A stretch of DNA of 64,000 nucleotides from Syntrophobacterales bacterium. Lineage in GTDB: Bacteria; Desulfobacterota; Syntrophia; Syntrophales; CAMTWB01. The notes under the pieces are model-generated. The model did no database searches. It was not told the DNA's origin and saw nothing but the letters and a program-made list of their open reading frames with translations. The stretch spans positions 1,708-65,707 of the forward strand of contig JBBIRO010000011.1 of the NCBI GenBank assembly GCA_037441775.1, written 5' to 3'. Both the position numbers and the translations under genes were made by a program. Numbering within the stretch: position 1 is the first letter of the stretch; each line of letters opens with the position of its first letter. Positions 25,562 to 51,975 of this stretch are shown one piece after another.

Positions 25562-25763
25562 TGACCTCGTAAAAAAGCACCGATCTGTCATATTGCCAAG
25601 GCGGACGCGGGCAGGAATGCCCGAGGCTACGGAGGCTTTACAAAAAATGGCAACGATTCGGTCTTAAGGAGCGGTGCTTGATTATCATGCCTGCAATAGC
25701 TATAAAGGCAACCCTCTTTCTTTAGGGGAGAGGGTGCTTGTGACTTTTTTACGAAGGCGTCAT
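25559..25763. repeat. T-motif-bounded composite element D (205 bp)
   Basis: L gatgacctcgtaaaaaagc, an internal L-like ggaggctttacaaaaaatgg, and R gacttttttacgaaggcgtcat. Carries module P (25592-25630) and the hairpin ccctctttctttaggggagaggg. Confidence 0.75.
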
Positions 25764-25779
25764 TGTTGAGAAGAGCAAA

Positions 25780-26469
25780 ATGAGCACAGTGGAAGAAAAC
25801 ATCAGAGCGATAAAGCAAAAAATAGCAGCAGCAGCCGGGCGGGCGGGACGCCGTCCGGAAGAGATAAAACTCATGGCCATTACCAAGACGGTGCCGGATG
25901 AACTGGTGCGGCAGGCCGTGGCCGCCGGGGTGGATATGATCGGAGAAAACTATGTCCAGGATGCCCAAAGGAGAATTGAAAAGGTTGCGACAACGATTCC
26001 TTGGCATTTTACCGGCCATCTTCAGACCAACAAGGCCAGGTACGCCGTTCGGCTCTTCTCGATGATTCATTCTCTGGACCGGATTGACCTGGCCCGGGAA
26101 TTGGACCGCCGGGCCGGGGAGGCAAGACGAAAAATCGAGGTTTTAATTGAGGTGAATATCGGGGGGGAGAGCACAAAAAGCGGGGTCCGGGCGGAAAATC
26201 TTATCCCTCTTATCCGGGAGACGGCCGACCTTGCCCACCTGTCGATCCGGGGACTGATGACCATCCCCCCATGGAGTGCTGACCCCCGGGAGACCCGGCC
26301 TTTTTTTCGGGAGCTTCGTCAGTTGCGAGACAGCATTATCAGGGAAAACATTCCGAACGTTGAAATGGCCGAGCTTTCCATGGGAATGAGCGACGATTTC
26401 GAAACAGCGGTGGAGGAAGGCGCCACCATCATCCGTATCGGCCGGGCTATCTTTGGCCCCCGGCATTAA
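25780..26469 (+). CDS. yggS: YggS-family pyridoxal-phosphate homeostasis protein
   Basis: Alanine-racemase-like N-terminal fold (LMAITKT, GENYVQDA, HFTGHLQTNK). Confidence 0.9.
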   Translation: MSTVEENIRAIKQKIAAAAGRAGRRPEEIKLMAITKTVPDELVRQAVAAGVDMIGENYVQDAQRRIEKVATTIPWHFTGHLQTNKARYAVRLFSMIHSLDRIDLARELDRRAGEARRKIEVLIEVNIGGESTKSGVRAENLIPLIRETADLAHLSIRGLMTIPPWSADPRETRPFFRELRQLRDSIIRENIPNVEMAELSMGMSDDFETAVEEGATIIRIGRAIFGPRH

Positions 26470-26623
26470 CGCTTTTTTTCAAGAAAAGACTAAAAAAGAA
26501 TAGTTCAAAATGATTTTGACCAGCACTGCCTTGAGGCCATGGGGTTTGCCACAATATAGTTTGACAAAGCCTGGGTAATGGTCTAGGTTGTAGGCAGGTC
26601 ACAAAACAGGTTACCGTCAAAAC

Positions 26624-26716
26624 TGACTACCCCGTGAAAAGTAACCGCGACGTCATTACCACGCGGGCGAAAATGACAAAATGTGAAGTTTCCCGACTTT
26701 TTACGCAGGCGTCAAA
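26624..26716. repeat. T-motif-bounded element G (93 bp)
   Basis: L tgactaccccgtgaaaagtaacc and R cgactttttacgcaggcgtcaaa. The core is homologous, in opposite orientation, to the core at 44556-44606. Confidence 0.75.
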
Positions 26717-26736
26717 ACTTAAATAGAGGTTTCAAT

Positions 26737-26925
26737 ATGTTCGGAATAGGAATGCCTGAATTGCTTGTTATTCTGGTGATTATTCTCATCATCTTCGGTG
26801 CCGGCAAACTGCCGGAAATCGGTAGCGCCTTGGGAAAAGGGATAAAAAACTTCAAAAAGGCAAACCGGGAACCGGATGAGATAGACGTAACACCTGAGTC
26901 CAAGAAGGTAGAAGACAAGAAGTAG
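26737..26925 (+). CDS. tatA: Twin-arginine translocase subunit TatA/E
   Basis: [29 protein letters not shown]. The upstream 18 codons of the tracked ORF are a translated repeat element. Confidence 0.9.
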
Positions 26926-27118
26926 CGCCAGGAATCAAATCGAGCGCTAATGGGGCTTAAACATGGCTGCTATATTCGTTACCTGCCGCGTCGCTAATGA
27001 AATAACTTCCCAATCCCTACCGCCGGAAGGCAGGATACTTGGGGGATTATCCAATCCACTGGACGGTCATCCCCCACAGTAACGGCCGGCGCCGGATCCG
27101 GCCCAGCTTTGAACCGGT

Positions 27119-27958
27119 TTATTTTCTTCTTGCTTTCCATTCGGCGGTATTAGCGCCGACCTTAACCACCCCCGCCATGCTGTTTCCGCTGACCAGGCCG
27201 CTATATTTCTCGTTGCCAAAGCTGAAGCTTATCTCGGCGCCGTATAATTTGCCATCCGTAATTACTTTGGTATCCGCTCCCGTTTTAAGGGTGCCAGAAA
27301 TCATCTGGTAGCTTTGTTTCAAAGTGAGTTCTCCCTGAGGAAGCTGCCACTTGCCCTCCACCTTGGCCGGGACAACCCAAAAATAGGCCTGGCAATAAGA
27401 GCTGTCACAGCCTTCTTCCTTGGTTACGGTCACTGTCTGGTCGGCCTGCCAGTCTCCCATGTGAAAGGAATTTGAGGCGATCCTGGTTCCTGGCTTGAGA
27501 TTAAGAATCGTGGGCCGAAGCCTCAGGTTGAGGTCTGGCAAAAGAAACATCGTGACCACCGTCGCCTCAGAAAAATTACTTTCAAAAATGTCGCCATGAA
27601 CAAAGATAGCCTTGTCGCCTACCCCTTCCCGGGCGGCGATGCGTCTGGACAGGGCCACCATATCAGGATTGTATTCGATACCCAGCGCCCGGGCACCCCT
27701 CTTCGCGGCGGTGATCACAATGCGACCATCACCGGAACCAAGGTCGACCACATAATCTTGCACCGTCACCTTGGCAAGGTCCAGCATTTTATCCGCAAGC
27801 GCCTGAGGAGTAGGCACCCAGATCACATCCTTGCCTACCTGGCCAACTGATGGCTGATACTCCTTGTCTCCATACTGAACCTGAGCATAAACGCCGCTGG
27901 TCAACAAAACCACACATAAAACCAATAAGCACTGGCGCAAACAGCGAACTGACTTCAT
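27119..27958 (-). CDS. Class I SAM-dependent methyltransferase-like protein with N-terminal signal peptide
   Basis: MKSVRCLRQCLLVLCVVLLTSGVYAQ signal-like N-terminus, motif I VVDLGSGDGRI, and a C-terminal beta-rich domain. AGGAGG RBS. Confidence 0.7.
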   Translation of the reverse strand: MKSVRCLRQCLLVLCVVLLTSGVYAQVQYGDKEYQPSVGQVGKDVIWVPTPQALADKMLDLAKVTVQDYVVDLGSGDGRIVITAAKRGARALGIEYNPDMVALSRRIAAREGVGDKAIFVHGDIFESNFSEATVVTMFLLPDLNLRLRPTILNLKPGTRIASNSFHMGDWQADQTVTVTKEEGCDSSYCQAYFWVVPAKVEGKWQLPQGELTLKQSYQMISGTLKTGADTKVITDGKLYGAEISFSFGNEKYSGLVSGNSMAGVVKVGANTAEWKARRK

Positions 27959-27998
27959 AAGTTTCCTCCTGCTAAATGTTAAAATTCCCCTGCCTTCG

Positions 27999-28496
27999 CT
28001 AATCAAAGGCAACAAATTCGGCTGCCGGAGCTCCGCAGACGGGGCATTCGGCGGGGCAGACCTGGTCCGCCACGTAGCCACAGACCCCGCAGACGAAATA
28101 TCCGGTTTCGCGTTCCGCCATCAGGTGCCCCATGGCTTCCTTGTAGAGTTTAACGTGGGTATCCTCCACGTCCCGACTCTGGCTGAAGAAGAGGGCCGCG
28201 GCGGCATTTCCTTCCGCCTCAGCGACGCGTAAAAATCCATCATAAGCAACCCCGGCCACTTTAGTTTCCGACTCGAAGGAGGCAGCCAGGTTCTCTTCCG
28301 TGCCTCTTATCTCTTTGAGCAGCCTAAGCGCCCGGGTAGCGTGAATCTTTTCCGAATGGGCGATCACCTTAAACAGCTTTGCCATCTGGGGATAGCCCTC
28401 TTCCCGGGCCTTATCGGCAAAGACCTCCAGACGAACCGCCGCTTTCGCCTCGCCGGCGAAAGCCTGGGCCAGGACACCTTTCGTATTGTCCATCAT
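27999..28496 (-). CDS. rbr: Rubrerythrin
   Basis: Four-helix diiron region (EAKA...EKIH, E..H) plus a C-terminal rubredoxin-like CGVCGY...CPVCGA. GGAGGTG is followed by ATGATG, so the start is 28496 or 28493. Confidence 0.9.
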   Translation of the reverse strand: MMDNTKGVLAQAFAGEAKAAVRLEVFADKAREEGYPQMAKLFKVIAHSEKIHATRALRLLKEIRGTEENLAASFESETKVAGVAYDGFLRVAEAEGNAAAALFFSQSRDVEDTHVKLYKEAMGHLMAERETGYFVCGVCGYVADQVCPAECPVCGAPAAEFVAFD

Positions 28497-28537
28497 CACC
28501 TCCACACCCTGTGGTGACAAACCGCCAAAGCAGGGTT

Positions 28538-28696
28538 TTATTCCGGCTCAAATTCATCCTTCCCGGCCCCGCAGACGGGGCAGGTCCAATCTTCCGGCAA
28601 GTCCTCAAAAGCAACCCCTGGTTTGATACCACTTTCCGGATCGCCCTGCGCCGGGTCATACACGTAACCGCAAACTCCGCATACGTATTTCTTCAT
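28538..28696 (-). CDS. rd: Rubredoxin (52 aa, absent from the supplied ORF track)
   Basis: Hand translation: [52 protein letters not shown]. Two CxxCG knuckles and an AAAGGAG RBS. Confidence 0.9.
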
Positions 28697-28755
28697 TTCC
28701 TGCTCCTTTCATTTTTTTAAAGAAACCCATTTTGGCTGCACTCAATTTTTTGGGC

Positions 28756-29973
28756 TTAGGATTCTTTCTCCGCCAGCTTTTCGTTGAGTTTTGCGCCCAA
28801 CAAAGCCCCCCTTTCATAGCAGTCCGCGAGAATATTGTTTGCCGGCCAATTCTTCACCCGAATCGCCTCTCCCACCAATTCCACCTTCAATCCCCTTAAA
28901 ACCTCCTCTATCTGGCCTGCCGCTTCACCCGACCAGCCGTAGGCGCCGAAGGCAGCTCCGAAAGGAATCAGCGGTTTAAGACCTTTGATATAGTTGAGAG
29001 CATCCGCAACCACGGGAAGCATTTGACCGTTAAGCGTCGAAGATCCCACCACCAGCACCCCGGCCTGATGAACTTCATTGATGATGTCGCTACGGTGGGA
29101 AGCGCTTGCCGACATGACCTTGACCTTGAGGCCGGAGGCGGCTAAACCCTCCCCGAAAGCCCGGGCCATCTGATCGGTCGCGCCCCACATGCTGCCGCAG
29201 ATAACTACCGCCTTTGCCTCCGGCTCCTGCCTGGCCCAGCGGACGTATTGAGAGACAATATTTCCCAAGTCTTTCCGCCAGATGGGGCCGTGATCCGGGG
29301 CGATGATTTTCAAGTCCAGACCCATTTTCCCCACCCGGTCAATGAGCTTCAGCACTAACTGCGAATAGGGGAGGATGATGTTGGCATAGTATCTGCGGGC
29401 CTCCTCGGTCAAAATCGCCTCGTCAATTTCATCGGCGAAGCGAGCGAGCGAGGCCAAGTGCATCCCAAAGGCATCCTGGGAGAAGAGAAATCCCGCCGCG
29501 GGAAGGTAGGTAAACATGCTGTCCGGCCAGTGGAGCATTCTGGTTTCCAGAAAAGAGAGGTCTACATTCCCCAGCGTCACACTCTGGCCGTCCTTCACGG
29601 GGGTTAGCTTATCACCCAGACCAAACAGTTCCTCCAGGGCCCTGGCCCCCATTATCGAAGCAAAGACCTGTTTTGGTTTTGTCTCCTCAATGATCTCCCG
29701 GAGGCAGCCGGAATGATCAACTTCGGCGTGATTGGAGATTATGTAACTTATGTCCCGGGGCTCCACCAGATGCGAAATCCGACTTAGCATCTCGGCCTTA
29801 AACGGCGCCTTTACCGTATCAATCAATATTACCTCCTCACCCATAATGAGATAGGCGTTGTAGCTGGTGCCCCGCCCGGTGACGTAGCCGTGGAAATCCC
29901 GGATGTTCCAGTCAACGGCACCCACCCAGTAGATATTTTCACTTACCTGGACCGGTTTATAAAAGTTCTTCAT
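28756..29973 (-). CDS. Flavodiiron protein (rubredoxin:oxygen oxidoreductase type, FprA/ROO)
   Basis: Metallo-beta-lactamase-like diiron motif (SNHAEVDHSG) followed by a flavodoxin-like domain (VVICGSMWGATD). Confidence 0.9.
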   Translation of the reverse strand: MKNFYKPVQVSENIYWVGAVDWNIRDFHGYVTGRGTSYNAYLIMGEEVILIDTVKAPFKAEMLSRISHLVEPRDISYIISNHAEVDHSGCLREIIEETKPKQVFASIMGARALEELFGLGDKLTPVKDGQSVTLGNVDLSFLETRMLHWPDSMFTYLPAAGFLFSQDAFGMHLASLARFADEIDEAILTEEARRYYANIILPYSQLVLKLIDRVGKMGLDLKIIAPDHGPIWRKDLGNIVSQYVRWARQEPEAKAVVICGSMWGATDQMARAFGEGLAASGLKVKVMSASASHRSDIINEVHQAGVLVVGSSTLNGQMLPVVADALNYIKGLKPLIPFGAAFGAYGWSGEAAGQIEEVLRGLKVELVGEAIRVKNWPANNILADCYERGALLGAKLNEKLAEKES

Positions 29974-29994
29974 GTTCTCTTCTCCCTTCCTAAA

Positions 29995-30618
29995 TCAAGC
30001 CTTCGCCATCAGCACAACCCCCTGGTCAAAGGCCTGCAGATTTGCCCCCATCTTGTCCCCAGTCATCATTTCGGCCATGATTTCCATAAAGCCATCTCTG
30101 CTCAAGGGGAGTTCCTTAAGCCCCGCCAGGGCGCCAATCATAATTATATTGCCTAAAATGGGGTTCCCCAATTTCACCGCCTCAGCAGTGGCATCTATAA
30201 ACCAGGCGGCAGCCGCCATTTTGGCAATTGCCTCTTGAATCTCCGCCGGGGAGGGATAGCGCTCTTGTCCCGCTATAACAGCCGCGGGGTAGATCGGCCG
30301 GGTATTGGTCAAAACCTTAATCCCGCTGTTGCCATATTGAGCCAGTACCCGTATTGCCTCTACGGGTTCCAGGGTTACTACCAGGTGGCCTCGCCCCTGA
30401 GGGATCTGGGGACTCCAAACCTTATCTGCAGAGACCCGCAGATGGCTCATCACCGACCCTCCCCGCTGTGATACTCCGAATGTCTCACCCACCACCACCT
30501 GAAATCCCTGCCGAACCAGCATTCCGGCCAAGAGGCGGGAGGCCAGGACGTTACCCTGTCCCCCAACACCGCAAATGATCAGATTGTAGGGATCATAAGC
30601 CAGAGCAATCTTTTTCAT
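29995..30618 (-). CDS. iorB: Indolepyruvate:ferredoxin oxidoreductase subunit beta
   Basis: NLIICGVGGQGNVLASRLL. The ATG overlaps the iorA stop (ATGA). Confidence 0.85.
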   Translation of the reverse strand: MKKIALAYDPYNLIICGVGGQGNVLASRLLAGMLVRQGFQVVVGETFGVSQRGGSVMSHLRVSADKVWSPQIPQGRGHLVVTLEPVEAIRVLAQYGNSGIKVLTNTRPIYPAAVIAGQERYPSPAEIQEAIAKMAAAAWFIDATAEAVKLGNPILGNIIMIGALAGLKELPLSRDGFMEIMAEMMTGDKMGANLQAFDQGVVLMAKA

Positions 30619-32567: not shown

Positions 32568-32570
32568 CCC

Positions 32571-33722
32571 CTATCGGAAATCCCGCGCCGGTTTGAGGCT
32601 GAGAATATCCTGAAGCAATGGATCTTGAGGATTAAGGTAGATAAGGTCATCCGGGCTGCCGCTTTTGGCAATCAGACTATCGAGTGCTTGTCGTTTCTTA
32701 GCACGGGCGGCCTGTTTGAGCTCCATTAGGGCGCCGTCAAAAAGCGGCCTGGTCTCGATCACACCCCTTTCCAGAGCAAGATTAAACAGCTCTTGGCCCC
32801 GTTCAGAACGGATGATAACCTGGTTCCAACCACTGGAATCGCCCTCTCCCTCGGTATCGCCCGCCGAACCGACCGAAATATCGCTGAATTCCGCCGTGGT
32901 ATCGACGCAGAAGCGGCAGGCGGGCCTGATCAGGCTTTGTATTTCTGCAAGCGGGAAATCGTAGCTACGCTCGCCGGCCGTGATCTCAAGCGTGTCTTTG
33001 CGCGGTGGGATGTCCATTCTGGTAACGGCAGCCACTTCGAGTCTGGTTTGCAAAAGTTTAATAAAGTCGCGCCAGACAAGACTCCAGCCGCAGAAAAGTC
33101 CGACGCCTAAAGCCAAAGGGCCGATAGGCTCATCCGTTCCTGCCGCCTCCCGACGCATCTTGGCCAGTGCCTGAAGCTGACAGGGCAAAAGCACCATGCC
33201 GATCCGTCCGCTGCCTTCCCGGACCGACCTTATAAACTGGGCTAAAAGCGGCGCCATTACAAAACGGCTGCCGGCGCACGTTACAATATCCTCAGAGCTG
33301 GTTGTAACGATAGCTTGTGGAAGAAATTTTTCTCTCTTTTCCGAAAGGATTGCCGTATCGATGATTCCCTCAGCCAGGGCCAGGTTCAACAGGCTGGTCA
33401 CGACACCGCCGTGCTGGACTTTCAGCCGATTTGCTGCCTGCCGCGATCGGACATGGTGATACCCTCTGAACGGTCCTAGTTCCGCTGTCAGTGGCGAGTC
33501 GGGGAAATAAAACTTTTGCAGCGCCGTTATGTCCAGACCGGTGCGGGGGCAGGAAGAGTAGCATTTACCATCGGCCAGATCACAGGGGTGGAGCGCCACC
33601 GTCCGGTCGCGATAGGAAACGAGATAGGGACAGTGAGTGGCGCAGGCGCCGCAGGAGGTGCATAAATCACGATTAGCTACCTGCGCCAGCAGATCCTTCT
33701 GCCCCTTGGCTGTTTTTTCCAT
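32571..33722 (-). CDS. FrhB-family (coenzyme F420 hydrogenase/dehydrogenase beta-like) iron-sulfur flavoprotein
   Basis: N-terminal ferredoxin-like CTSCGACATHCPY and CYSSCPR, then the FrhB N and C regions. Its stop is 3 nt upstream of the iorA start. Confidence 0.7.
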   Translation of the reverse strand: MEKTAKGQKDLLAQVANRDLCTSCGACATHCPYLVSYRDRTVALHPCDLADGKCYSSCPRTGLDITALQKFYFPDSPLTAELGPFRGYHHVRSRQAANRLKVQHGGVVTSLLNLALAEGIIDTAILSEKREKFLPQAIVTTSSEDIVTCAGSRFVMAPLLAQFIRSVREGSGRIGMVLLPCQLQALAKMRREAAGTDEPIGPLALGVGLFCGWSLVWRDFIKLLQTRLEVAAVTRMDIPPRKDTLEITAGERSYDFPLAEIQSLIRPACRFCVDTTAEFSDISVGSAGDTEGEGDSSGWNQVIIRSERGQELFNLALERGVIETRPLFDGALMELKQAARAKKRQALDSLIAKSGSPDDLIYLNPQDPLLQDILSLKPARDFR

Positions 33723-33881: not shown

Positions 33882-33973
33882 GGGCGAAATCGTAAAAAGC
33901 AACGCCGTTGCCTATTGCCAAGGTAGCAGCGGGCAAAAAGGCCCGCGTCTACAAAACTTTTTACCGCGCCTTT
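33882..33973. repeat. T-motif-bounded element H (92 bp)
   Basis: L gggcgaaatcgtaaaaagc and R aactttttaccgcgccttt. The core is module P (33914-33952). Confidence 0.7.
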
Positions 33974-34939: not shown

Positions 34940-35073
34940 TTGATGCCTTCATAAAAACTCCACCTGCTCCTCCCCTCGCGCGAGGGGATAAGGGGGAGGT
35001 GGAGATGGCGGACTTTTTACCGCGCCGTCCAAAAATTGCAGTTTTACGGAGTTTTACCGCTTCATCAATTCTA
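34940..35073. repeat. T-motif-bounded element I with extended R-side module
   Basis: L ttgatgccttcataaaaactc, nested hairpin ccacctgctcctcccctcgcgcgaggggataagggggaggtgg, and R gactttttaccgcgccgtcc. The 43-nt extension ends 2 nt before the thiolase RBS. Confidence 0.75.
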
Positions 35074-36406: not shown

Positions 36407-36533
36407 TTTGACGGCTTCGTAAAAAGGAGAGGGGGAGTTAAATACTTGGGATGGCAATTATTATCACCTTCACCGTAAACCCTCTCACCTCAAGAGAGAC
36501 AGGGAGCTCTTGAATTTTTACGAAGTCGTCAAA
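36407..36533. repeat. T-motif-bounded element E (127 bp)
   Basis: L tttgacggcttcgtaaaaa and R tttttacgaagtcgtcaaa match at 18 of 19 positions as inverted repeats. The core is homologous, inverted, to the cores of J and K. The R end contains the polymerase stop codon. Confidence 0.85.
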
Positions 36534-37836
36534 CCTTGATGTTCAGCAGGGGGATAGCAAGCCGTTGGCGCTTCGTATCACCGTGGGGGCAGGTATCCTC
36601 CCGGACGGTCGGGTCACCCCGGCGGCCATTACCCAGCATTTCCAACGGATGCGAAGAGCCAATGTGAAGGGAGTGTTTGCCGTATCTGGCGCTTACCTGA
36701 TCAACCGCCAGGTAGAGTTCCCTGATCCGCTCGGCATGGATGGGGTCCTCGAAAAGCGAGTATTGGACTGCCCTGTCCGGCGCCAGCTCCATCAGTACCA
36801 CCCCGGTCGCCCGGTAAAGGACATTTTCACGGTAGAGGCCGGCAAAGGCCTGCCGCAGCACTTCCGAAAGTTCGTGGGGGTAGGCCGAGGGGCGGCTGAG
36901 CTTGATCTCCTGGCTTTGGGTATTGAAATCCCGGGTACGCAAGACCGCCATAATCCGGCGGGCGGCAAGTTGATAGCGACGAGCCTTAATGCAGGCGTTT
37001 TCGAGGTTGCGCATCAGGTGGGCGAAGAGATATTCCTGCTCCGCCGTCGGGGGCGAAAAGGTTTTCATTTTGCTTATCGATACGTATGAGCTCTTCTCTT
37101 CCGTCGCCACCGGATAGACCATTTCGCCCCGCAGCTCCCTCCATATCTCCAGCGCCGGCTTCGTGAAGCGCGCCAAGATAACCCTTTCGGGAAGCCGGGC
37201 AAATTCCAGGGCGGTTGTTATCCCCAGCTTGGCAAGGTAACTGGTCGTGGCATGGCCGATACCCCAGATCTTTTCCACCGGCAGTCCCTGAAGGTAATCG
37301 GCGATGGACCGCCCCGGGATGAAAGTCAGGCCGTCTGGTTTTTTGTGCTTCGATGCAACCTTGGCCAAGACCTTGGTGAGACTTAGGCCCACGGAAACGC
37401 CGATCCCCAGTTCCTTTTCAATGGCTATTTTCATCATCCCGACAATATCTTCGTAGGAAGCGCCAAGGGCCCGGCGCATGCCGGTTAGATCCGCGAAGGC
37501 CTCATCGATGGAATATTCCTCCACCTGGGGGGTAAAGCGCCGCATGATATTGAACATCCGCCGGGAAAAGAGGCTGTAGGTTTCGTAATCGGAAGGCAGA
37601 ACAATCAGCCCCGGGCAGATGTTCCTGGCTAGCGCCAGAGGAACGCCCCTTTTTACCCCCCTGGCCTTAGCGGCATAACTGGCGCAAGCAACTATTCCCC
37701 GCTCCGCCCCGCTAACCAATGGCTTACCCCTAAGCTCCGGATGGATCGCCTCTTCGCAGGAGGTAAAAAAGGCGTCGCCATCGATATGAACTATCGCCCT
37801 GGGCCAGGAATGAATGTTGAATATCCGATTAGTCAA
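36529..37836 (-). CDS. Y-family DNA polymerase (UmuC/DinB-like)
   Basis: IVHIDGDAFFTSCE and YSIDEAFADLTG motifs. Starts 18 nt downstream of lexA. Its stop TGA lies inside a T-motif repeat. Confidence 0.85.
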   Translation of the reverse strand: MTNRIFNIHSWPRAIVHIDGDAFFTSCEEAIHPELRGKPLVSGAERGIVACASYAAKARGVKRGVPLALARNICPGLIVLPSDYETYSLFSRRMFNIMRRFTPQVEEYSIDEAFADLTGMRRALGASYEDIVGMMKIAIEKELGIGVSVGLSLTKVLAKVASKHKKPDGLTFIPGRSIADYLQGLPVEKIWGIGHATTSYLAKLGITTALEFARLPERVILARFTKPALEIWRELRGEMVYPVATEEKSSYVSISKMKTFSPPTAEQEYLFAHLMRNLENACIKARRYQLAARRIMAVLRTRDFNTQSQEIKLSRPSAYPHELSEVLRQAFAGLYRENVLYRATGVVLMELAPDRAVQYSLFEDPIHAERIRELYLAVDQVSARYGKHSLHIGSSHPLEMLGNGRRGDPTVREDTCPHGDTKRQRLAIPLLNIKV

Positions 37837-37854
37837 GGTATCGCCCTGCTAGAT

Positions 37855-38442
37855 TTACCGGTGATATTTGCGGATCACCGCCACCACAACGCCACCCAGG
37901 CGAAGTTCATTTTGGGGCCTGATAGTTGGATATTTGGGATTGGCCGACTTAAGAAAAACATCACCGCCTATTTGGGTAAAATACTTCATTGTCCAGTTGC
38001 CGTCCACTTCGGCCAAAACAATATCTCCGTTATTGGCCGTCCGGCCCCGCTCGACGATTACGAGATCGTTTTCCCTTATCCCTTCGCCAATCATGGAATC
38101 CCCGCTGACCTTAAGGAGAAATGAAGAGTCGGGCCGATTGATCAGGTACTCATCAAGGGAAATCACATCGCGCAACTCTTCCTCCGCGGGGGTCGGAAAG
38201 CCGGCCTGGATCTCCCCCGCCAGGGCCAGCGAGAAGGTTTGCCTTGCCGGCAGGAGATGTCCCTTTCCGTCGCGGATCAAAACCCCCTCCTCAATGAGCC
38301 GGTTTACCCAGAAATGGACGACGCTTTTGGAGCGTACCCCGAGGATTTCCATCATTTCCGCATAGGAAGGCATCCGCCGCTGTTCCCGGTAGAAATTGGC
38401 GATCTGACCCGTTATCAACGCAACGTTTCGTTTCTTTTCCAT
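37855..38442 (-). CDS. lexA: LexA repressor
   Basis: N-terminal winged HTH, an Ala-Gly cleavage region (LALAGEIQAGFP), an S24 peptidase Ser (SGDSM) and a Lys (WTMKYF). Confidence 0.9.
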   Translation of the reverse strand: MEKKRNVALITGQIANFYREQRRMPSYAEMMEILGVRSKSVVHFWVNRLIEEGVLIRDGKGHLLPARQTFSLALAGEIQAGFPTPAEEELRDVISLDEYLINRPDSSFLLKVSGDSMIGEGIRENDLVIVERGRTANNGDIVLAEVDGNWTMKYFTQIGGDVFLKSANPKYPTIRPQNELRLGGVVVAVIRKYHR

Positions 38443-38496
38443 AAGTGCCCCTTCTCCCGGCAGCGCCGGAAATATAAGCCATCGTTGGTGGATATA

Positions 38497-38667
38497 GTCA
38501 CATTTGATGAAGCGGTAAAAAGCTCAAAAACCCCTCTCACTTGAAAAAACAGAGAGGGCAACAGGGTGTCGATAGTAGCCATTTCAAGTATTTAGCTCCC
38601 CATTACCTTTATCCACTCCCACAATGAGAGCGGAAACGCGACTTTTTACGAGGTCGTCAATTGTGAC
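38497..38667. repeat. T-motif-bounded element J (171 bp including the extended inverted repeat GTCACAWTTGA)
   Basis: L gtcacatttgatgaagcggtaaaaagc and R gactttttacgaggtcgtcaattgtgac. The core contains hairpin ccctctcacttgaaaaaacagagaggg and the shared block aagtatttagctcccc. Confidence 0.8.
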
Positions 38668-44496: not shown

Positions 44497-44497
44497 A

Positions 44498-44660
44498 ATG
44501 ACCTCATAAAAAGTCTTAAAAGCCTTGAATTTAGATTGGCTTCGTAAAAAGATCGAAAAACCTCACATTTTGTCATTCCCGCCTGCGCGCGAATAACGCC
44601 GTGGTTACTTTTTACGAAGGCGTCAACAAAAGCCGCACTCCTTTTTTCTTCCAAAAACGG
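44498..44660. repeat. Composite element F: two L termini, one R terminus and an abutting CGCACTCC module
   Basis: atgacctcataaaaagtc, attggcttcgtaaaaagatcg and actttttacgaaggcgtcaa, followed by caaaagccgcactccttttttcttcc. Confidence 0.75.
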
Positions 44661-44753: not shown

Positions 44754-46394
44754 ATGGAAATCAAAACTGACTTTCTGGTGTTGGGAAGCGGCATTGCCGG
44801 ACTTAGCTTTGCCATCAAGGCGTCGCAACTGGGAACTGTCGCGATAGTGACTAAGAAAGATGTTTCGGAATCAAACACCAATTACGCCCAAGGGGGAATT
44901 GCCGCCGTTTCGGATCCGCTGGATCGTTTCGAGTATCATATCAACGATACCATTGTTTGCGGCGCCGGGTTATCCAAGCCGGATGTGGTTAAGTTCGTAG
45001 TTGAGGAGGGACCGGAAAGGATCAGGGAACTCGTCGATTGGGGCGTAGAATTTTCTCGTTCCCAGGAACCATGTTCAGCCTACGATCTTGGGCAGGAGGG
45101 CGGCCACTCAATGCGCCGGGTGCTGCACGCCAAAGATCTTACCGGACGCGAAATTGAACGGGTTCTGAACGAAAAGGCATCAGGGATAGAAAATATCAAG
45201 ATTTATGAAAATTTCATCGCCGTTGACCTGATTATGCCTTCTTCACCGACCGGAAAACAGAAGAGGGCTGCCGATACCTGTCTGGGCGCCTATATCCTCG
45301 ACATCCAGGCTAACGAAGTCCATACATTCCTTGCCAATTACACGATCATTGCCACCGGCGGGGCCGGCAAGGTCTATCTCATTACCACTAATCCGGACAT
45401 CGCCACCGGCGACGGAATAGCCATGGCCTACCGCGCCGGCGCCAAAATAGCCAATATGGAATTCATTCAGTTTCACCCCACTTGCCTCTATCACCCGGAG
45501 GCCAAAGCCTTTCTGATCAGCGAAGCTCTACGCGGGGAAGGTGGAATTCTCAAGCTCAAAAACGGCAGCACCTTCATGGAAAAATATCATCCCCAGGGAT
45601 GTCTTGCCCCGAGGGATATAGTCGCCAAAGCAGTCGACACGGAGATAAAGAAATCCGGCGATGAATATATTCTGCTTGACATCAGTCATCGGGACCGGGA
45701 ATTCATCATCGACAGATTCCCCAATATTTATAAGCGCTGTCTGGATTTTGGCATTGATATCACGTGCGAACCTGTCCCGGTGGTTCCGGCGGCCCATTAC
45801 ATCTGCGGAGGCGTTCTCGTCGATGGCGTCGGAAAAACCAGCATTGACAGGCTCTACGCACTGGGTGAGGCGGCGTGCACCGGGCTTCACGGCGCCAACC
45901 GTCTGGCCAGTAACTCATTACTGGAGGCGCTGATCTTCGCGCATCGGTCTTTTGTAGAGATTAGCCATGATTTCGCTCCGCTGAATTTAAACACGCTCGC
46001 TGTAGAACCATGGTGCACTCTGGGGGTAGTCGAAAGTGACGAATTTATTCTTGTATCTCATAACTGGGATGAACTGAGACAGCTGATGTCGGACTACCTG
46101 GGCATCGTCCGTTCCAATCAGCGGCTGGAAATGGCCTTAAACAGGATAAGGCTGATCGGCAAGGAAGTGGAAGATTTTTACCGTAATTTTCATCTTAGTA
46201 AAGACATTATTGAACTTAGGAACATATCACTTGTGGCATTGCTGATCGTTCGCTCGGCCATGAGCCGCCAAGAAAGCCGGGGGCTTCATTACAACGTGGA
46301 TTTTCCGGCTTCTGATGACACCAACTTTTTAAAAGACACCGTCATCTCGAAATACGATGACTTCGTAAAAAGTCAAAAGCCCCCTCTCCCTTGA
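44754..46394 (+). CDS. nadB: L-aspartate oxidase, with the last ~12 codons encoded by a repeat element
   Basis: DFLVLGSGIAGLS FAD-binding motif and RVLHAKD..TG. The tail DDFVKSQKPPLP is translated T-motif plus hairpin module. Confidence 0.9.
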   Translation: MEIKTDFLVLGSGIAGLSFAIKASQLGTVAIVTKKDVSESNTNYAQGGIAAVSDPLDRFEYHINDTIVCGAGLSKPDVVKFVVEEGPERIRELVDWGVEFSRSQEPCSAYDLGQEGGHSMRRVLHAKDLTGREIERVLNEKASGIENIKIYENFIAVDLIMPSSPTGKQKRAADTCLGAYILDIQANEVHTFLANYTIIATGGAGKVYLITTNPDIATGDGIAMAYRAGAKIANMEFIQFHPTCLYHPEAKAFLISEALRGEGGILKLKNGSTFMEKYHPQGCLAPRDIVAKAVDTEIKKSGDEYILLDISHRDREFIIDRFPNIYKRCLDFGIDITCEPVPVVPAAHYICGGVLVDGVGKTSIDRLYALGEAACTGLHGANRLASNSLLEALIFAHRSFVEISHDFAPLNLNTLAVEPWCTLGVVESDEFILVSHNWDELRQLMSDYLGIVRSNQRLEMALNRIRLIGKEVEDFYRNFHLSKDIIELRNISLVALLIVRSAMSRQESRGLHYNVDFPASDDTNFLKDTVISKYDDFVKSQKPPLP

Positions 46395-46475
46395 CGGAAG
46401 ATGGTTGGGGTGTTGTGATAATGGCGCTTAATTCTAAATGCTTAGCTCCCCATCCCCTTTATCCCCTCCCGCGAG
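46356..46475. repeat. Element K: an L terminus plus the J/E-type core, with no clear R terminus
   Basis: gatgacttcgtaaaaagtc followed by a core with gtgataatgg...aatgcttagctccccatcccctttatcccctccc, homologous to 38524-38638. The first 39 nt are read as the NadB C-terminus. Confidence 0.7.
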
Positions 46476-46565
46476 ACGGCCAGGATGAAAACCACCAAAC
46501 TGGTCAAGTGCCACTAGACCAACCATTTTTTTGACGAATGCCTGGCTTCCCGGTATGGAGCGGCA

Positions 46566-48302
46566 TTACACAAAAAGCGGCACCAGTTCAAATCGGCCGA
46601 CGTCCACAAGGCCCCGGTCGGTGATCTTCAGATCGGGAATTACGGGCAACGCCAAAAAAGAAAGGGCCATAAAGGGCTCATCGATTCGAACCCCCAGGCC
46701 GTTTAACGCCTGCCTCATTTTTTCCCAGCCATACGCAACCTCAGCCAACGAACGCTCGGACATCAGTCCGCCGATGGGAAGCGGCAGCCCGGCTACGACC
46801 TTGCGGTCTCTCACGGCGGCAAGCCCGCCTTTCATCGCTTCGACGGCCTTTATCGCTGTGAACATATCCCCATCGTCACAGCCCACGCAAATGATATTAT
46901 GGGAATCATGCGCGACCGACGAGGCCAACGCGCCTTCCTGCAAGCCAAAGCCCTGAACCAGCCCCAGGCCGATATTGCCCGTCGCCCGATGACGCTCCAC
47001 CACGGCGATTTTAATAATATCCCGGTCCCTGTCCGCGACGACCAGGCCCTCCCGAATGGGCGCCGCCAGCACCATCTGACGAGTCAGAAGCTGGCCGGGA
47101 ACCAGGCCGATAACACGAACCTTCCCGCCCCTGTCCTGGATGATGAAGGAATTCTCATGATAGGGGGCGATGTTCATCGGGCTTGCTAAGGCAAGCGGCG
47201 CCAAAGGCTTGATTTCGGGAATAATCTGACCGGCCTCGTAAACACGTCGGCCATTTTTGAAAACAGTAGTCACCGCCACCGGAGAGAGACTAGAAAGAAG
47301 TAACAGATCCGCCTGATAACCCGGCGCAATGGCCCCGCGGTAATCGAGACCGAAATAGCGGGCGGTGTTGTAAGTCGCCATCCGAATCGCTGTCACCTGG
47401 TCGATTCCTTCTCCCACAGCGCGATCGATGAGATGGTTCATATGACCCTGCCGCATCAGGTCATGCGGATTGAGGTCGTCCGTCACGAGTGAGCAGTGGT
47501 AGGCGGCAACCGGAGAAACCAGGGGGGCGAGAGCGCTTAAATTTTTCACCTGCGTCCCCTCCCTGATCATGATATGCATACCTAGCCTGATTTTTTCGCG
47601 CGCCTCAGCAAGCTCAGTGCACTCGTGATCCGATGACATGCCCGCCGTGATATAGGCGTTGAGATTTTGGCCGGTCAAAAGCGGCGCATGGCCATCGCAT
47701 CGGTATCCGGCAAAGGCGTTAACCTTTTCCAGAACCAATGGCAATCCCGACAGAACCCCTGGATAATTCATCATTTCGGCAAGACCGAGCACACGGGGCT
47801 CATCTTTTAGTATCAGCAGGTCATCGGCCGACAAGATGGCACCGGCGGTTTCCAGCGGGGTCGCCGGGACACAAGAAGGAAGCATAAAGAAAAAATCAAC
47901 TGGCAAGCCCGCGCTTGCAGCAAGCATAAAGCGGACCCCCTCAATTCCAAGGACATTGGCGATCTCATGCGGATCGGCGATAATCGTCGTCGTGCCGAAA
48001 GGCAGCACTGCACCCGCCAGTTCCGGCGGCGCCAGCATGCTGCTTTCGATATGGAGGTGGCCATCGATGAAGCCGGGGGCAATGAACTGCCCGGCAACAT
48101 CAATGCTATGCGGACCGTCGTAATCGCCCACGCCGACAATGATTCCGTCATAAATCGCCACATCCGCCGCGATTATTTCACCCGTAAATACATTTACGAC
48201 CCGGCCTCCCTTTAAAACAAGATCCGGCGCAACGTCCCCCCTAGCCGCCCAAATTCGCTGCCTCAGCCGTTCGATTGTATTGGGAACTTTAGCTTCCATC
48301 AC
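46566..48302 (-). CDS. ade: Adenine deaminase
   Basis: Amidohydrolase motif PGFIDGHLHIESSM. Length and architecture are typical of Ade. Confidence 0.9.
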   Translation of the reverse strand: MMEAKVPNTIERLRQRIWAARGDVAPDLVLKGGRVVNVFTGEIIAADVAIYDGIIVGVGDYDGPHSIDVAGQFIAPGFIDGHLHIESSMLAPPELAGAVLPFGTTTIIADPHEIANVLGIEGVRFMLAASAGLPVDFFFMLPSCVPATPLETAGAILSADDLLILKDEPRVLGLAEMMNYPGVLSGLPLVLEKVNAFAGYRCDGHAPLLTGQNLNAYITAGMSSDHECTELAEAREKIRLGMHIMIREGTQVKNLSALAPLVSPVAAYHCSLVTDDLNPHDLMRQGHMNHLIDRAVGEGIDQVTAIRMATYNTARYFGLDYRGAIAPGYQADLLLLSSLSPVAVTTVFKNGRRVYEAGQIIPEIKPLAPLALASPMNIAPYHENSFIIQDRGGKVRVIGLVPGQLLTRQMVLAAPIREGLVVADRDRDIIKIAVVERHRATGNIGLGLVQGFGLQEGALASSVAHDSHNIICVGCDDGDMFTAIKAVEAMKGGLAAVRDRKVVAGLPLPIGGLMSERSLAEVAYGWEKMRQALNGLGVRIDEPFMALSFLALPVIPDLKITDRGLVDVGRFELVPLFV

Positions 48303-48349
48303 TTGGACACCCCTTTTAAAAGGGTGACACTACCTAGCCCCATCTGCGC

Positions 48350-49642
48350 TTACCCGAATACCCGCTTGAATATCAGACCCACATGGCTGAGAAAATTATC
48401 GTAGTTAAAAATGGCGTCAATATCTTCCTTCGTGATATTTGCCATTACTTCTGGATCCTGTAACAGGAGGCTATGAAAATCAAATCCCCCTTCCCAGGAG
48501 GCCATGGCATTTTTTTGGACCAGCCGATAGGCGTCCTCCCGGGAAAGGCCGTTCTCAACAAGCTTCAAGAGAACCATCTGGGAGAATACCACCCCCCTGG
48601 TAAGATTTAAATTCTCCCGCATTTGCTGTGGATAGACCACCAGGTTATCCAGGAGACCAGTAAACCTTTTTAGCATAAAGTCCAAAAGCACTGTAGCATC
48701 CTCGCCAATCACCCGTTCCACGGAGGAATGGCTGATATCACGCTCATGCCAGAGGGGTATGTTTTCGAGGCTCGCTATGGCATAAGACCTCATCAGCCGG
48801 GCCAGTCCGGAAAGGTTCTCCGACAGTACCGGGTTCCTCTTATGGGGCATCGCGGACGACCCCTTTTGGCCGGGCGAAAAGTATTCTTCCACCTCTCGTA
48901 CCTCTGTCCGCTGCAGCAACCTTATTTCCTGGGCAAACTTGTCGATTGAGGAGGCGATAATGGCCAAAGTGCTAAAGAATTCAGCGTGGCGATCCCGCTG
49001 AATTATCTGCGATGACACCTTCTCCCGGCTAATGTCCAGCTTCCGGCAGACATATTCTTCCACAAAAGGAGCGACAAATGAGTAGGTACCCACCGCCCCC
49101 GATAGCTTGCCGTAACTGATGTTTTCTTGGGCGCGGATCAGACGCAGCTTATTTCGTTCCATCTCCTGATACCAGATGGCGAGCTTAAGTCCAAAGGTAA
49201 TCGGTTCGGCATGGATTCCATGGGTCCGGCCAATCATCACGGTATCCCTAAAAAGCAGTGCCTTTTCGCGTAACACCAAAAGAAGACGATCCAAGTCATC
49301 AAGCAGGATAGCGGCTGCTCTTTTTAACAGGACGCTGAAACTGGTGTCCAGAATATCAGAGGAGGTCAGTCCCCGGTGAATGTATCGCCCCTCTTCCCCT
49401 ACCCGTTCCGTGACGGCAGTCAAAAAGGCAATAACATCATGCCTGGTGATGGCTTCAATTTCCTCGATGCGCGCCAGATCGAATGATGCCCGTTCTTTGA
49501 TTGCCTTGATGGCATCAGGGGGAAGTTGCCCCAGTTCGGCCATAGCTTCACAAGCCAGAATCTCGATTTCAAGCCAGGTTTGATACTTGGTTTGGGGGGT
49601 CCAAAGCAGGGTCATCTCATTACAGGAATAGCGGGGAATCAA
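48350..49642 (-). CDS. purB: Adenylosuccinate lyase
   Basis: Fumarate-lyase signature GSSAMPHKRNP. The TTG at 49642 (MIPRYSCNEM) follows an AAGGAG RBS. The tracked ORF starts 10 codons upstream. Confidence 0.9.
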   Translation of the reverse strand: MIPRYSCNEMTLLWTPQTKYQTWLEIEILACEAMAELGQLPPDAIKAIKERASFDLARIEEIEAITRHDVIAFLTAVTERVGEEGRYIHRGLTSSDILDTSFSVLLKRAAAILLDDLDRLLLVLREKALLFRDTVMIGRTHGIHAEPITFGLKLAIWYQEMERNKLRLIRAQENISYGKLSGAVGTYSFVAPFVEEYVCRKLDISREKVSSQIIQRDRHAEFFSTLAIIASSIDKFAQEIRLLQRTEVREVEEYFSPGQKGSSAMPHKRNPVLSENLSGLARLMRSYAIASLENIPLWHERDISHSSVERVIGEDATVLLDFMLKRFTGLLDNLVVYPQQMRENLNLTRGVVFSQMVLLKLVENGLSREDAYRLVQKNAMASWEGGFDFHSLLLQDPEVMANITKEDIDAIFNYDNFLSHVGLIFKRVFG

Positions 49643-49680
49643 TGTTTTTCTCCTTCGGTCTTTTTTATACATCTATTATG

Positions 49681-49699
49681 TTGACCGTAATTGCGTCAA
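49681..49699. repeat. Short palindrome TTGACCGTAATTGCGTCAA, possibly a collapsed pair of T-motif ends
   Basis: TTGAC...GTCAA arms with a CGTAA core. Lies between purB and the small membrane gene. Confidence 0.3.
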
Positions 49700-49751
49700 G
49701 CTATTTCCAATTCCTGTTGCAGCTGCCGCAAATATGGTATAAGTGTAACAG

Positions 49752-49988
49752 ATGCGAATTTTGATCAGAAATGTTTGCGGCTGGATATTACTGATGGCTG
49801 GCGTTGTTGGGCTTTTCCTACCGCTGCTGCAGGGAATCCTCTTTATCATTCTGGGAATCATGATCCTGGCGCCCAACGTGCCTTTTTTTAAAAAAATATT
49901 GCATAATCTCCACGAGAGGAATCCCGAGATTTTCGTTCAGGCGAATAGACTGAAAAGTAAGATCCAATCACTCTGGTCTAAATACTAA
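49752..49988 (+). CDS. Hypothetical small membrane protein
   Basis: Two predicted TM helices. No family recognised. Confidence 0.4.
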   Translation: MRILIRNVCGWILLMAGVVGLFLPLLQGILFIILGIMILAPNVPFFKKILHNLHERNPEIFVQANRLKSKIQSLWSKY

Positions 49989-50056
49989 CAAGTGGCTTTA
50001 TATACAAGTCACCGCCGGCAATCGGAAAATGTTTATAATTTTCAGGGAGATATTTT

Positions 50057-51775
50057 ATGAAGAAGATTTTAGCTTTATTGTTGGGATTTATAATAATAAT
50101 TGGCTCATACGGAGTACTCAAGGCTCAGGATAAGAAAATTGTCGCCGTCATTCCCTTTACCGTCTATAGCGCCGAGAATATCGATTACATTCGCCAGGGC
50201 GTATCAGGAATACTTTCATCGCGACTGGCCGCATCCGACAAGATTGAGGTTACAAATCGCGAGGCAATAGCCGAGGCTCTAAAAGCTCTTGGCGTAAGAG
50301 AGCCTTCCGGCGCAGATGTCGAGTCTGTGGGAAAGGCGCTAAAAGTTCATTACGTTGTTTGGGGAAGCCTGACCAAAATCGGCAGCAGTGTCAGCATCGA
50401 TGCCAAGTTGTCCGAAATTACGACGGCCAAGCCTCCGGTAAACTTTTTTTCCCAAACGCAAAACCTAGACGAAATCATTCCTCGCACTAGCGAAGTCGCC
50501 GAACGGATTGCACGCCAGGTAACAGGAACGCAGCAATTGGCAGGCCAGCAGATTGAACCTCAGGCGCGCCCATCGGGGTCGGCGACATTACCCGTGCCTC
50601 CTCCCCCGGCCGGCAGTTCCCGGGAGGCGGAAATCATATCTTCGCTACGTGGCGGAGGCAAAAAGGCCACCTTTACCTCAATCATTAATCCTGACTTCAT
50701 CAACGTGCCTGGATCAACCGGTTTAGACCGGCGCGGCTTTTGGATGAGCAATGACTTCCCAAATGAATTCAAAGGAATGGACATCGGCGATGTCACCGGA
50801 GACGGCATGAATGATGTGGTAATGATAGATTCGACCAACATATTCATCTATCAGAAGAAAGGTCAGGAATTTAAACAGATCCACCATATTAGAGGTAAGT
50901 CTTACGACAATTATCTTTCCGTCGATGTGGCCGATATTAACAGAAACGGCATCAAAGAAATTATCGTCACCAATATCAACGAGACCCTTCTCAATTCCTT
51001 CGTCCTGGAATTCCGCGATGGGAAGTTCACGCAAATCGCATCGGACATAAGACTGTTTCTGAGAGTCATCAGCCCCGATGGCAAGGAACCAGTATTGCTC
51101 GGACAGAATTTCGGCAGCGACGCTATTTTCAATTCGCCGATACATGAAGTGGTCTGGCGTAACGGCCAGTACCAGCCAGGGAAAAGAATGAAGATACCCC
51201 AGGGGCTTCCCATTTACGGCCTCACGATCGACAGTCTCGCCGCCGGAGGGGAAAAGATAATAGTGCTCAATGATTTTGATAATATCACCCTTTACCATCC
51301 TACTGACAAGCCCCTGTCCCGTCTAGCCGTGTTTGGCGGCGCCAAAGAACTGATCTACCGTAGCGAAGAGCCTTTCGGCGGATCGAATAATTATCTGGCG
51401 CCAACCTCAAGTAGTAGAAATCCCGTCATCGATCAGGTCAATAACACATACCTTAACTTAAGAATATTGACCTACGATCTCGAGGGCAAGGGCAAAAGGG
51501 TAATCATAATCCCGAAAAACTCGTCCCCAATAGGCCGGGTCTTAAGCAATGTCAAACTGTTCACGAGCAGCGAATTATACTGCCTCTCCTGGGATGGGCT
51601 GGGTATGGCGGAAAACTGGCGGTCAAGAAAGATAAACGGCTACGTGGCCGACTACCAGATAAAGGACCTGAACAACGACGGCAAGGATGAAATAGTGATG
51701 ATTCTGGTTCGCGAACATGGAACCGGTAGAAAGGGGCATTCGGTGCTGGTTTCTTACGATCTTACCGTTAATTGA
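50057..51775 (+). CDS. Secreted FG-GAP/VCBS-repeat protein
   Basis: Signal peptide plus repeated D-x-N/D-x-D-G-x-x-E/D calcium-type motifs (DVTGDGMNDVVMID, DINRNGIKEIIVTN, DLNNDGKDEIVMIL). Its stop TGA lies inside a T motif. Confidence 0.7.
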   Translation: MKKILALLLGFIIIIGSYGVLKAQDKKIVAVIPFTVYSAENIDYIRQGVSGILSSRLAASDKIEVTNREAIAEALKALGVREPSGADVESVGKALKVHYVVWGSLTKIGSSVSIDAKLSEITTAKPPVNFFSQTQNLDEIIPRTSEVAERIARQVTGTQQLAGQQIEPQARPSGSATLPVPPPPAGSSREAEIISSLRGGGKKATFTSIINPDFINVPGSTGLDRRGFWMSNDFPNEFKGMDIGDVTGDGMNDVVMIDSTNIFIYQKKGQEFKQIHHIRGKSYDNYLSVDVADINRNGIKEIIVTNINETLLNSFVLEFRDGKFTQIASDIRLFLRVISPDGKEPVLLGQNFGSDAIFNSPIHEVVWRNGQYQPGKRMKIPQGLPIYGLTIDSLAAGGEKIIVLNDFDNITLYHPTDKPLSRLAVFGGAKELIYRSEEPFGGSNNYLAPTSSSRNPVIDQVNNTYLNLRILTYDLEGKGKRVIIIPKNSSPIGRVLSNVKLFTSSELYCLSWDGLGMAENWRSRKINGYVADYQIKDLNNDGKDEIVMILVREHGTGRKGHSVLVSYDLTVN

Positions 51776-51975
51776 CGACTTCGTAATAAGCACGGATGCA
51801 GCTTTGAGGCTAAATCCCTCGCCACTCAAGGCAATGCCCACCTTGTTGGCGCAAGCGCTCTTGACTATTGCCAAATCGCCGCGGGCACAAGGCCCGCGGC
51901 TACAGATAATTGGGCAATCCCGGCTCGTCCCGCCAGACAGCGGAAGTCAGAGCAGCGTACTTTTAGATTGACAAC
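51772..51975. repeat. Element L: an L terminus, module P and a degenerate R terminus
   Basis: ttgacgacttcgtaataagc, module P at 51867-51903 (9-bp stem gccgcgggc/gcccgcggc), and R-like gtacttttagattgacaac. Confidence 0.6.

Follow-up and report, generated by a model that had tools for sequence, protein, structure and literature searches.

Miniature inverted-repeat elements with shared termini and varied interiors: a probable family of non-coding mobile repeats in a Syntrophales chromosome segment

We analysed a 64,000-nt stretch of contig JBBIRO010000011.1 from a Syntrophobacterales bacterium (hereafter the window, to which all element coordinates refer), a gene-dense bacterial chromosome segment of ~52% GC whose YggS and RsmA proteins share 98–100% identity with proteins of metagenome-assembled genomes (MAGs) at NCBI, and whose closest homologues with a source label, at 56–72% identity, belong to Smithellaceae or Syntrophales. 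Between and within its genes lie short repeated blocks that begin and end with copies of a 19–21-nt motif, GAYGNNYTCGTAAAAAGTC, which we call the T-motif or terminus (Table 1). A preliminary description of the window, which wrote this motif as TTGACGRCTTCGTAAAAAGTC and its reverse complement, saw in the blocks interchangeable core modules between identical termini, placed in either orientation and with hairpin potential preserved, and proposed that recombination or template switching at the T-motif generates new combinations. On our analysis the repeated blocks are very probably a family of non-coding MITEs (miniature inverted-repeat transposable elements) with 19–21-bp inverted ends and varied interiors, a family that is probably undescribed yet of an ordinary kind, with no new mechanism.

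Table 1 Elements and single termini in the window. C to N, window elements; L and R, left and right terminus; T1, T2 and T3, successive terminus copies within an element; P, module P; z, folding score against dinucleotide shuffles.
Feature	Window position	Strand	Structure	Remarks
Solo L terminus	813–832	+	weak (GACGACTTTGGCAAAAAGTC)	
Solo R terminus	12277–12295	-	GATTTTTTACCACGCCGTC	back to back with 12302–12357
L terminus and block	12302–12357	+	L terminus with CCGCACTCC / CT-rich block, without R end	first copy of block 4
C	19499–19660	-	full canonical 155-type copy, three termini	nhmmer E = 1.8e-32 over the full profile length; duplication AAGATT at 19493–19498 and 19661–19666
D	20080–20263	+	diverged canonical, T1-core-T2 (20207–20225)-T3 (20247–20263)	nhmmer E = 3.3e-12; flanks AATTTT / AATTCT
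E	25560–25761		composite of P-type left part and module-2 right part	left: T-L', 13 nt, P hairpin (25592–25630); right: inverted partial module-2 with CCCTCT/AGAGGG hairpin
F	26625–26713	+	module-3 core, single ATTxCCxC...GxGGxAAT hairpin	duplication AAAACT
G	33883–33973	+	short 'T-P' MITE with P (33914–33952) between two termini	flanks AAATAG / AAATAA
H	34942–35066	+	T1, CT-rich palindromic core and canonical T2-T3 tail	core z -3.97; T2 35011–35029, T3 35051–35066; profile match to the T2-T3 tail
I	36410–36530	-	module-2 element inverted as a whole	z -4.98; between thiolase gene and Y-family polymerase gene
J	38506–38658	+	module-2	variant L terminus GATGAAGCGGTAAAAAGCTC
K	44497–44624	-	module-3, three termini	termini 44500–44515, 44536–44554, 44606–44624
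L	46356–46480	+	module-2, no recognisable R end	right limit approximate
M	51774–51976	+	degenerate canonical with nested P (51867–51903)	profile positions 1–54; extended hairpin within 51860–51920, z -5.0
N	52015–52075	+	perfect L terminus and CTCTCCC/GGGAGAG hairpin only	right limit approximate; 22 nt upstream of tRNA-Met
Solo terminus	52578–52596	+		adjoins TTGACA-17-TAATAC promoter-like site of tRNA-Val/Asp pair
Solo terminus	56387–56405	+	GATGACTTCGTAAAAAAAC	

At up to three mismatches the window contains 13 matches to the T-motif, where 0.01 would be expected (>1000-fold enrichment), and looser scans together with a reading of the spacers bring the number to ~17 sites, 11 of which consist of an L and an R copy lying 89–203 nt apart. 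Across the window and the loci of other genomes described below, the 19–21-nt motif stands in inverted pairs at the ends of 105 bounded elements. To call these termini identical was an overstatement; they are similar, differing from the consensus at 0–6 bases and falling into several variants (GACGRCTTCG..., GATGNNCTCG..., GATGAAGCGG..., and ...AAGCA in copies that carry module P). When the two flanks of each of the 105 elements were compared, the 6-mer left of GAYG was identical to the one right of CRTC in 35 elements, seven bases matched in 13 more, and mean flank identity was 3.92 of 6 vs. 2.92 ± 0.08 with shuffled partners. TT in "TTGACG" and AA in "CGTCAA" are therefore part of an AANNTT-like target duplication, and the inverted repeat proper begins at GAYG.

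Comparison with a related genome, G05_MAG_00005 (~82% nucleotide identity; hereafter the relative), of which two loci (L123 and L207) overlap much of the window, showed the corresponding sites without several of the elements. Readable empty sites occur for C, D, E, F and K, elements with canonical, P and module-3 cores, and single target sequences (GTTAAGGTTGCC, CGGTAAAATTTG and ATCAACAAAAG) are present there. Element C interrupts GTTAAG(A/G)TTG and F interrupts CGGTAAAATTTG, both sites being empty in L123, whilst K interrupts ATCAACAAAAG, with the duplication (A)ACAAAA and a clean empty site in L207. Element E splits maf from yggS, two genes which overlap by 4 nt in L123. G and H are likewise absent from the relative, with unclear junctions, the orthologous spacer in L123 lacking G. 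Reciprocally, L123 of the relative contains two canonical copies, and for the one that was checked the orthologous window site (18527–18570) is empty. This pattern of presence and absence (elements C to H, and K) matches that of MITEs for which the ends are what a transposase would need.

The family extends well beyond this lineage and is very common among the genomes of sulfate reducers and syntrophs. A scan for an exact 21-mer in one genome per GTDB species returned at least 120 stretches, and the hosts listed are nearly all Thermodesulfobacteriota MAGs, those named among the matches being Desulfobacterales, Desulfobacteraceae, Desulfosudaceae, Syntrophales, Syntrophobacterales, Desulfatiglandales and unclassified Thermodesulfobacteriota; among the matches listed many sit at contig ends, as expected of repeats that break assemblies. 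The copies are small and lack coding capacity, as in MITEs, bounded copies in the window measuring 89–203 nt and copies in other genomes mostly 128–200 nt. The dominant form elsewhere is 155 nt long and reads T1 (GACGGCTTCGTAAAAAGTCC), a ~85-nt palindromic core, T2 (GAACTTTTTACTTTGCCGTC), ~8 nt and T3 (GACTTTTTACGAGNNCATC); we refer to it as canonical, and element C shares 70–84% identity with copies of it in other MAGs. Counting termini in 109 elements gave two in 44 and three in 50 (in either orientation), and two further elements are symmetric with four termini, such as L084 20–197, which reads T3' T2' core T2 T3. Stacked termini had been regarded as local composites, but the three-terminus copy is the standard form in many genomes, and the stacking thus represents two native terminus copies per end rather than a local pile-up. 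The cores of 110 elements cluster into 80 canonical, 11 of a second class (class 2, with two GTCATTCCGGC...GCCGGAATGAC-type hairpins) and a remainder of pairs and singletons that includes the window's own cores. Longer canonical copies (in L071, L118, L025, L085, L026, L112, L002 and others) contain inserts of 14–34 nt at varied positions, some of which are GC-rich hairpins (for example CCCCGC-TTAC-GCGGGG, z -3.7; CCCGCC...GGCGGG, z -4.3), and one 21-nt insert, GCTTACGCCTTGTAAACATGC, was found in four loci.

In an alignment of 38 canonical copies T1 pairs with T2 and inner stems form within, 96.6% of cells being paired. Double-change cells number 48, compared with 14.9 ± 3.8 in shuffles (none of 500 shuffles reached 48) and at most 11 with slid partners, and this covariation beyond two controls makes the preservation of the hairpin real at the level of the family. 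Single-strand DNA folding, scored against dinucleotide shuffles, bears out the preserved hairpin potential for H, I and two of the three P copies, but not for J (z -0.7), K (z -1.2), F (z -1.3) and L (z +0.3), which fold no better than shuffles. A covarying fold-back would also suit sequences with a function in the host, be it as untranslated-region hairpins, small RNAs, protein-binding sites, promoters or terminators, that had been spread by selection, and the same could be said of the several copies that end 15–45 nt before start codons, of exact termini common to several orders, and of two insertions that are now part of coding sequence. The copies, however, lie between convergent, divergent and tandem genes alike and even inside a gene, they are absent at orthologous sites of the close relative, and they carry target duplications. 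Rfam returned five tRNAs only from the window, both at the gathering score and at E ≤ 0.5, so that no known structured RNA family matches the elements even at E 0.5, and promoter- or terminator-like sites are no commoner than in shuffles. Selection for a host function thus seems to us a very unlikely origin of the family, although individual copies could still have been co-opted.

The cores themselves resolve into subfamilies and their derivatives. Module 2, as the preliminary description had it, is present in J and L and inverted in I, and we found partial copies at 25631–25761 (in E) and at the position of N; a further copy in the relative (L207 20251–20280, 90% identity across 30 nt, inside a longer stretch that matches at 84%) marks it as a true subfamily. 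Module 3 likewise holds up, 26624–26702 and 44547–44625 being 76% complementary over 79 nt, and its hairpin shares 95% identity over 20 nt with a class 2 copy (window 44575–44596; L035 ~5163–5182). As the 79-nt match spans both termini, whole elements are inverted rather than cores within fixed termini, and the claim of cores in either orientation reduces to the fact that an element with terminal inverted repeats (TIRs) inserts either way round. Beyond C and D, the canonical profile also matches parts of H and M (Table 1), and since the left core of M additionally matches canonical copies of the relative, M is a degenerate canonical copy with a nested P. Block 4, in contrast, does not form a module: its two copies, at 12302–12357 and 44634–44655, share a 9-mer (CCGCACTCC) and a T-run, blastn-short found nothing between them at E < 0.05, and by our estimate ~3 such 9-mer matches would be expected by chance among ~30 flanks. 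The second copy lies outside the target duplication of K, and in L207, which lacks element K, the orthologue of this stretch (GTAACGCTCCTTATTTCTTCC) occupies the corresponding place, so that 44634–44655 is native flank; the first is 70% complementary to H's inner flank over 37 nt. For block 4 an origin by chance matching in low-complexity, GC-rich spacer DNA is therefore the right one, and several window copies do fold no better than shuffles, but the >1000-fold enrichment of the motif, the target duplications, the empty sites and the homology across genomes refute it for P, modules 2 and 3 and the termini, and as an account of the whole it is almost certainly wrong.

Module P occurs at the three places originally reported, always on the + strand, and nowhere else in the window. 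The ~125 related loci contain no further copy, and a search for its pattern in metagenomes returned 78 loci, none of them P. Two of its three copies fold better than dinucleotide shuffles (z -1.45, -3.0 and -4.46), and to that extent the stems are preserved as proposed; they show no compensatory change, however, the stem sequence being the same in all three (GCGGGC/GCCCGC), which is conservation. All copies have TTGGCAATA as a second conserved flank, and the left part of E and element G share, in addition, the ...AAGCA type of terminus and 13 nt in front of P; from their sequences both seem to derive by deletion from a form resembling M. Alternatively, P may be a unit like the repetitive extragenic palindromes (REPs), moved by a Y1 transposase of the REP-associated tyrosine transposase (RAYT) type and merely situated inside T-motif elements. 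On the minus strand all three copies do begin with a GTAG head followed by a GC-rich palindrome and the conserved flank, and in M the module is a self-contained hairpin nested in a canonical-derived copy. Against this, there are only three copies, all within T-motif elements, in one orientation and without inverted doublets, no Y1 transposase is encoded among the 20 window open reading frames (ORFs) scanned, P is missing from the ~125 related loci and the metagenome scan, and the 13 nt shared by E and G between terminus and P are what descent, and not separate insertion, would leave. The GTAG-plus-palindrome pattern is not that of the T-motif, and TIRs with 6–7-bp duplications contradict a REP or REPIN (paired REP) identity. 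We give the REP explanation little credence. In ~55 of the 78 loci of the metagenome scan (L129–L206) the pattern had by chance matched an unrelated, highly conserved hairpin, TATTGCCAATCGTTTAGCGGGC...GCCCGGCCAACGATCAG, of abundant soil bacteria, situated in a spacer next to or upstream of a conserved coding region; it has no match in Rfam.

A model along the lines of the preliminary description, in which homologous recombination or replication template switching between T-motifs of different elements is the main source of new combinations and the motif acts as a junction of modules, has one candidate in D and H: their tails (20220–20270 and 35024–35073) share 92% identity over 51 nt from the internal terminus T2 onwards, whilst the cores upstream are unrelated. 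Judging by the alignment, this chimera could have arisen by exchange at one of the terminus copies, or else by the inner T1-core-T2 unit being replaced. In element E, too, a left part of the P type meets a right part of module 2, close to a degenerate stretch that resembles a terminus, and dense 19–21-bp repeats would be plausible recombination substrates. These are nevertheless only one or two candidate events; the differences in orientation are inversions of whole elements, the multi-terminus architecture is ancestral and did not arise from stacking, nesting plus deletion accounts better for the forms that carry P, and block 4 is native DNA. Several unrelated cores between similar termini, and mosaic elements, do exist as first described, but the cores are subfamilies and derivatives, and whereas the D/H case fits recombination at the T-motif, nested insertion with internal deletion explains the P copies at least as well. 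We consider it doubtful that recombination was the main source of the combinations; exchange at the T-motif would be at most a contributing process, implying no special mechanism or other element identity.

The elements are best explained as a MITE family, as follows. The T-motif is a terminal inverted repeat that would be bound by a transposase encoded elsewhere in the genome, and insertion duplicates 6, sometimes 7, bp of an A...T-ended (AANNTT-like) target; because movement would require the ends only, any sequence between two ends would be carried along. A full end comprises two tandem terminus copies ~8 nt apart, an outer one of the GATGNNCTCG type and an inner one of the GACGGCTTYG type, so that copies with two, three or four termini are normal variants. 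The window elements belong to the 155-nt canonical fold-back subfamily (C, D and parts of H and M), to the module-2 subfamily (I, J, L, the right part of E, and N), to a module-3 form (F and K) whose hairpin recurs in the second widespread core class, and to P-bearing forms, in which P lies nested in canonical-derived M and deletion apparently left the shorter G and E-left. The data presented here show the inverted repeats, the target duplications, the empty and reciprocal sites, the relationships among subfamilies and the covariation of the fold-back. What we infer is movement by DDE-type cut-and-paste through a putative transposase, and also the sequence in which nesting, deletion and recombination took place.

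Several observations weigh against this explanation. No autonomous element lies between terminus pairs 0.5–4 kb apart with matching flanks, and Pfam searches of ORFs beside orphan termini found housekeeping genes or more MITEs and no parent insertion sequence (IS); the 20 window ORFs scanned with Pfam include no transposase or RAYT, and no autonomous element was found in plasmids (by blastn) or in three viral contigs. We thus found no cognate IS with the same ends in the window, the ~125 loci, the plasmids and the viral contigs. Many copies in the window are decayed, with an imperfect duplication or none in E, H, I and J, and one end is missing in L, N and the copies at 12302, 52578 and 56387. 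Exact termini in several orders might equally reflect a function in the host, and the explanation does not account for the origin of P and of the small inserts in other copies. A possible lead for the parent is the ISDol1 group (ISNCY, from Desulfococcus oleovorans of the same phylum), for which ISfinder gives inverted repeats and 6–7-bp direct repeats; the duplications of 6–7 bp in our elements agree with it in length, and the literature that we found on the group contained passing mentions only. We found no publication with the T-motif sequence or describing MITEs of these taxa. Rather unlikely, in our estimation, is a reading with two layers of mobility, in which an undescribed Thermodesulfobacteriota MITE superfamily, with double terminus copies and a covarying core, would be accompanied by tiny hairpin units that are inserted or captured, such as P and the GC-rich hairpins in canonical copies. 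If true, the superfamily layer would imply a shared, unrecognised transposase or strong structural selection, and the layer of hairpin units would make MITEs platforms for the assembly of mosaic elements.

The preliminary description thought the same termini around different interiors in both orientations unusual for simple MITEs; families defined by a shared TIR and target-site duplication (TSD), with differing interiors, are in fact the norm. Our elements resemble bacterial MITEs in being short (89–203 nt), non-coding, bounded by TIRs and target duplications and dispersed in many copies, as well as in their insertion polymorphism, fold-back potential and subfamilies with common ends and differing interiors, but differ in having tandem double terminus copies at each end, ends common to several orders and no parent IS that we could find. 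In a survey of 183,232 genomes, 97.4% of MITEs were genus-specific when clustered at 95% identity (PMC11602168), which makes the breadth of the T-motif ends mildly notable. With the bacterial interspersed mosaic elements (BIMEs) of E. coli and the neisserial interspersed mosaic elements (NIMEs) they have in common the use of a few short motifs in mosaic combinations in spacers, although BIMEs are built of REP units tied to RAYT and are not known to have a TIR or TSD, whereas the elements here are bounded by both. Correia elements of Neisseria (Correia repeat enclosed elements, CREE, or Neisseria miniature insertion sequences, NEMIS) are ~100–155 bp long, with long TIRs, size variants produced by internal deletion, a very high copy number and frequent positions next to genes, in all of which they are similar to ours; they duplicate TA and have unrelated 26-bp TIRs, whereas the duplication here is 6–7 bp and the TIR sequence is different. 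The hairpin of module 3 and class 2 (ATTCCCGCCTGCGCGGGAAT) would fit the pattern of the Neisseria dRS3 repeat, ATTCCC-N8-GGGAAT. Rickettsia palindromic elements (RPEs) and the enterobacterial repetitive intergenic consensus or intergenic repeat units (ERIC/IRU) are likewise palindromic repeats of 100–150 nt with a conserved fold-back, and RPEs are found inserted in frame within genes, like copy C here, but their sequences are unrelated, and RPEs and ERICs are not known to have a clear TSD or TIR-defined ends comparable to those of the T-motif elements.

Several copies have altered the genes beside them. Element C with its 6-bp duplication (168 nt) follows codon 8 of a gene for a DUF3568 lipoprotein (19475–20038) and keeps the reading frame, giving an ORF of 187 aa compared with 130 aa in the relative and placing the lipobox LLLTAC after a 56-residue insert; the same insertion is present in a 99.4%-identical strain. 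Each terminus holds a stop in one reading frame, and in three genes, an EF-G-like gene (62–814), maf (24848–25561) and the gene of an FG-GAP protein (50057–51775), the TGA stop is formed from the last T of the target and the GA with which the terminus begins (812–814, 25559–25561 and 51773–51775). The L terminus of element L (46356–46394) is orthologous to L207 ~7216–7260 and in both genomes supplies the final ~13 codons together with the stop codon of a FAD-binding gene (44754–46394 in the window) similar to aspartate oxidase and fumarate reductase; it is an old insertion that has been retained as coding sequence. Between I and J, which stand in opposite orientation (36410–38658), lie genes for a Peptidase_S24 protein (LexA/UmuD-like) and a Y-family polymerase (36529–38442) that are not found beside the orthologous PIG-L gene of the relative; the outer flanks of the pair match at only 4 of 6 positions, and a MITE-flanked mobile cassette is a possibility. 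Terminus copies (52015 and 52578) also bracket tRNA-Met and a divergent tRNA-Val/Asp pair in the region 52013–52620. A conserved tRNA-linked element was considered and rejected, as a copy in L044 lies at the 3' end of tRNA-Val and not upstream as in the window, which indicates independent insertions near tRNAs.

Near-identical strains and the relative gave further observations on the same spacers. In L121, a locus of the 99.4%-identical strain, the right 57 nt of element F are missing (window 26660–26716; L121 position 10880), with the junction ...CATTAC/TTAAAT and a microhomology of AC; the site lies 55 nt from a contig end and an assembly artefact is therefore possible. An apparent extra 100 nt inside H in L209 (~14808–14907), a scaffold of a near-identical strain, proved to be a run of N, which sits exactly at the internal terminus T2 and shows that these repeats break assemblies. 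The relative has spacer repeats of its own that we did not see in the window (L123 18760–18850 and 12500–12560; L207 13150–13250), composed of tandem AAATCCCCCCTGCCCCCCTTTGGGAA units and CCCCCAACCCCTCTTTT...AAAGAGGGG hairpins.

With ~17 sites in 64 kb the family makes up ~3% of the window. It interrupts MAG assemblies, as seen in the many matches at contig ends and in the scaffold gap inside one copy, and it inflates gene calls where ORFs read through copies, to the extent of adding 56 residues to a lipoprotein precursor. It has also supplied gene ends: the stop codons of three genes derive from its termini, as does a conserved C-terminal tail in one case. A description of the family together with its profile would improve the annotation of Syntrophales and Desulfobacterales genomes, and would provide a marker of insertion polymorphism at the level of strains.

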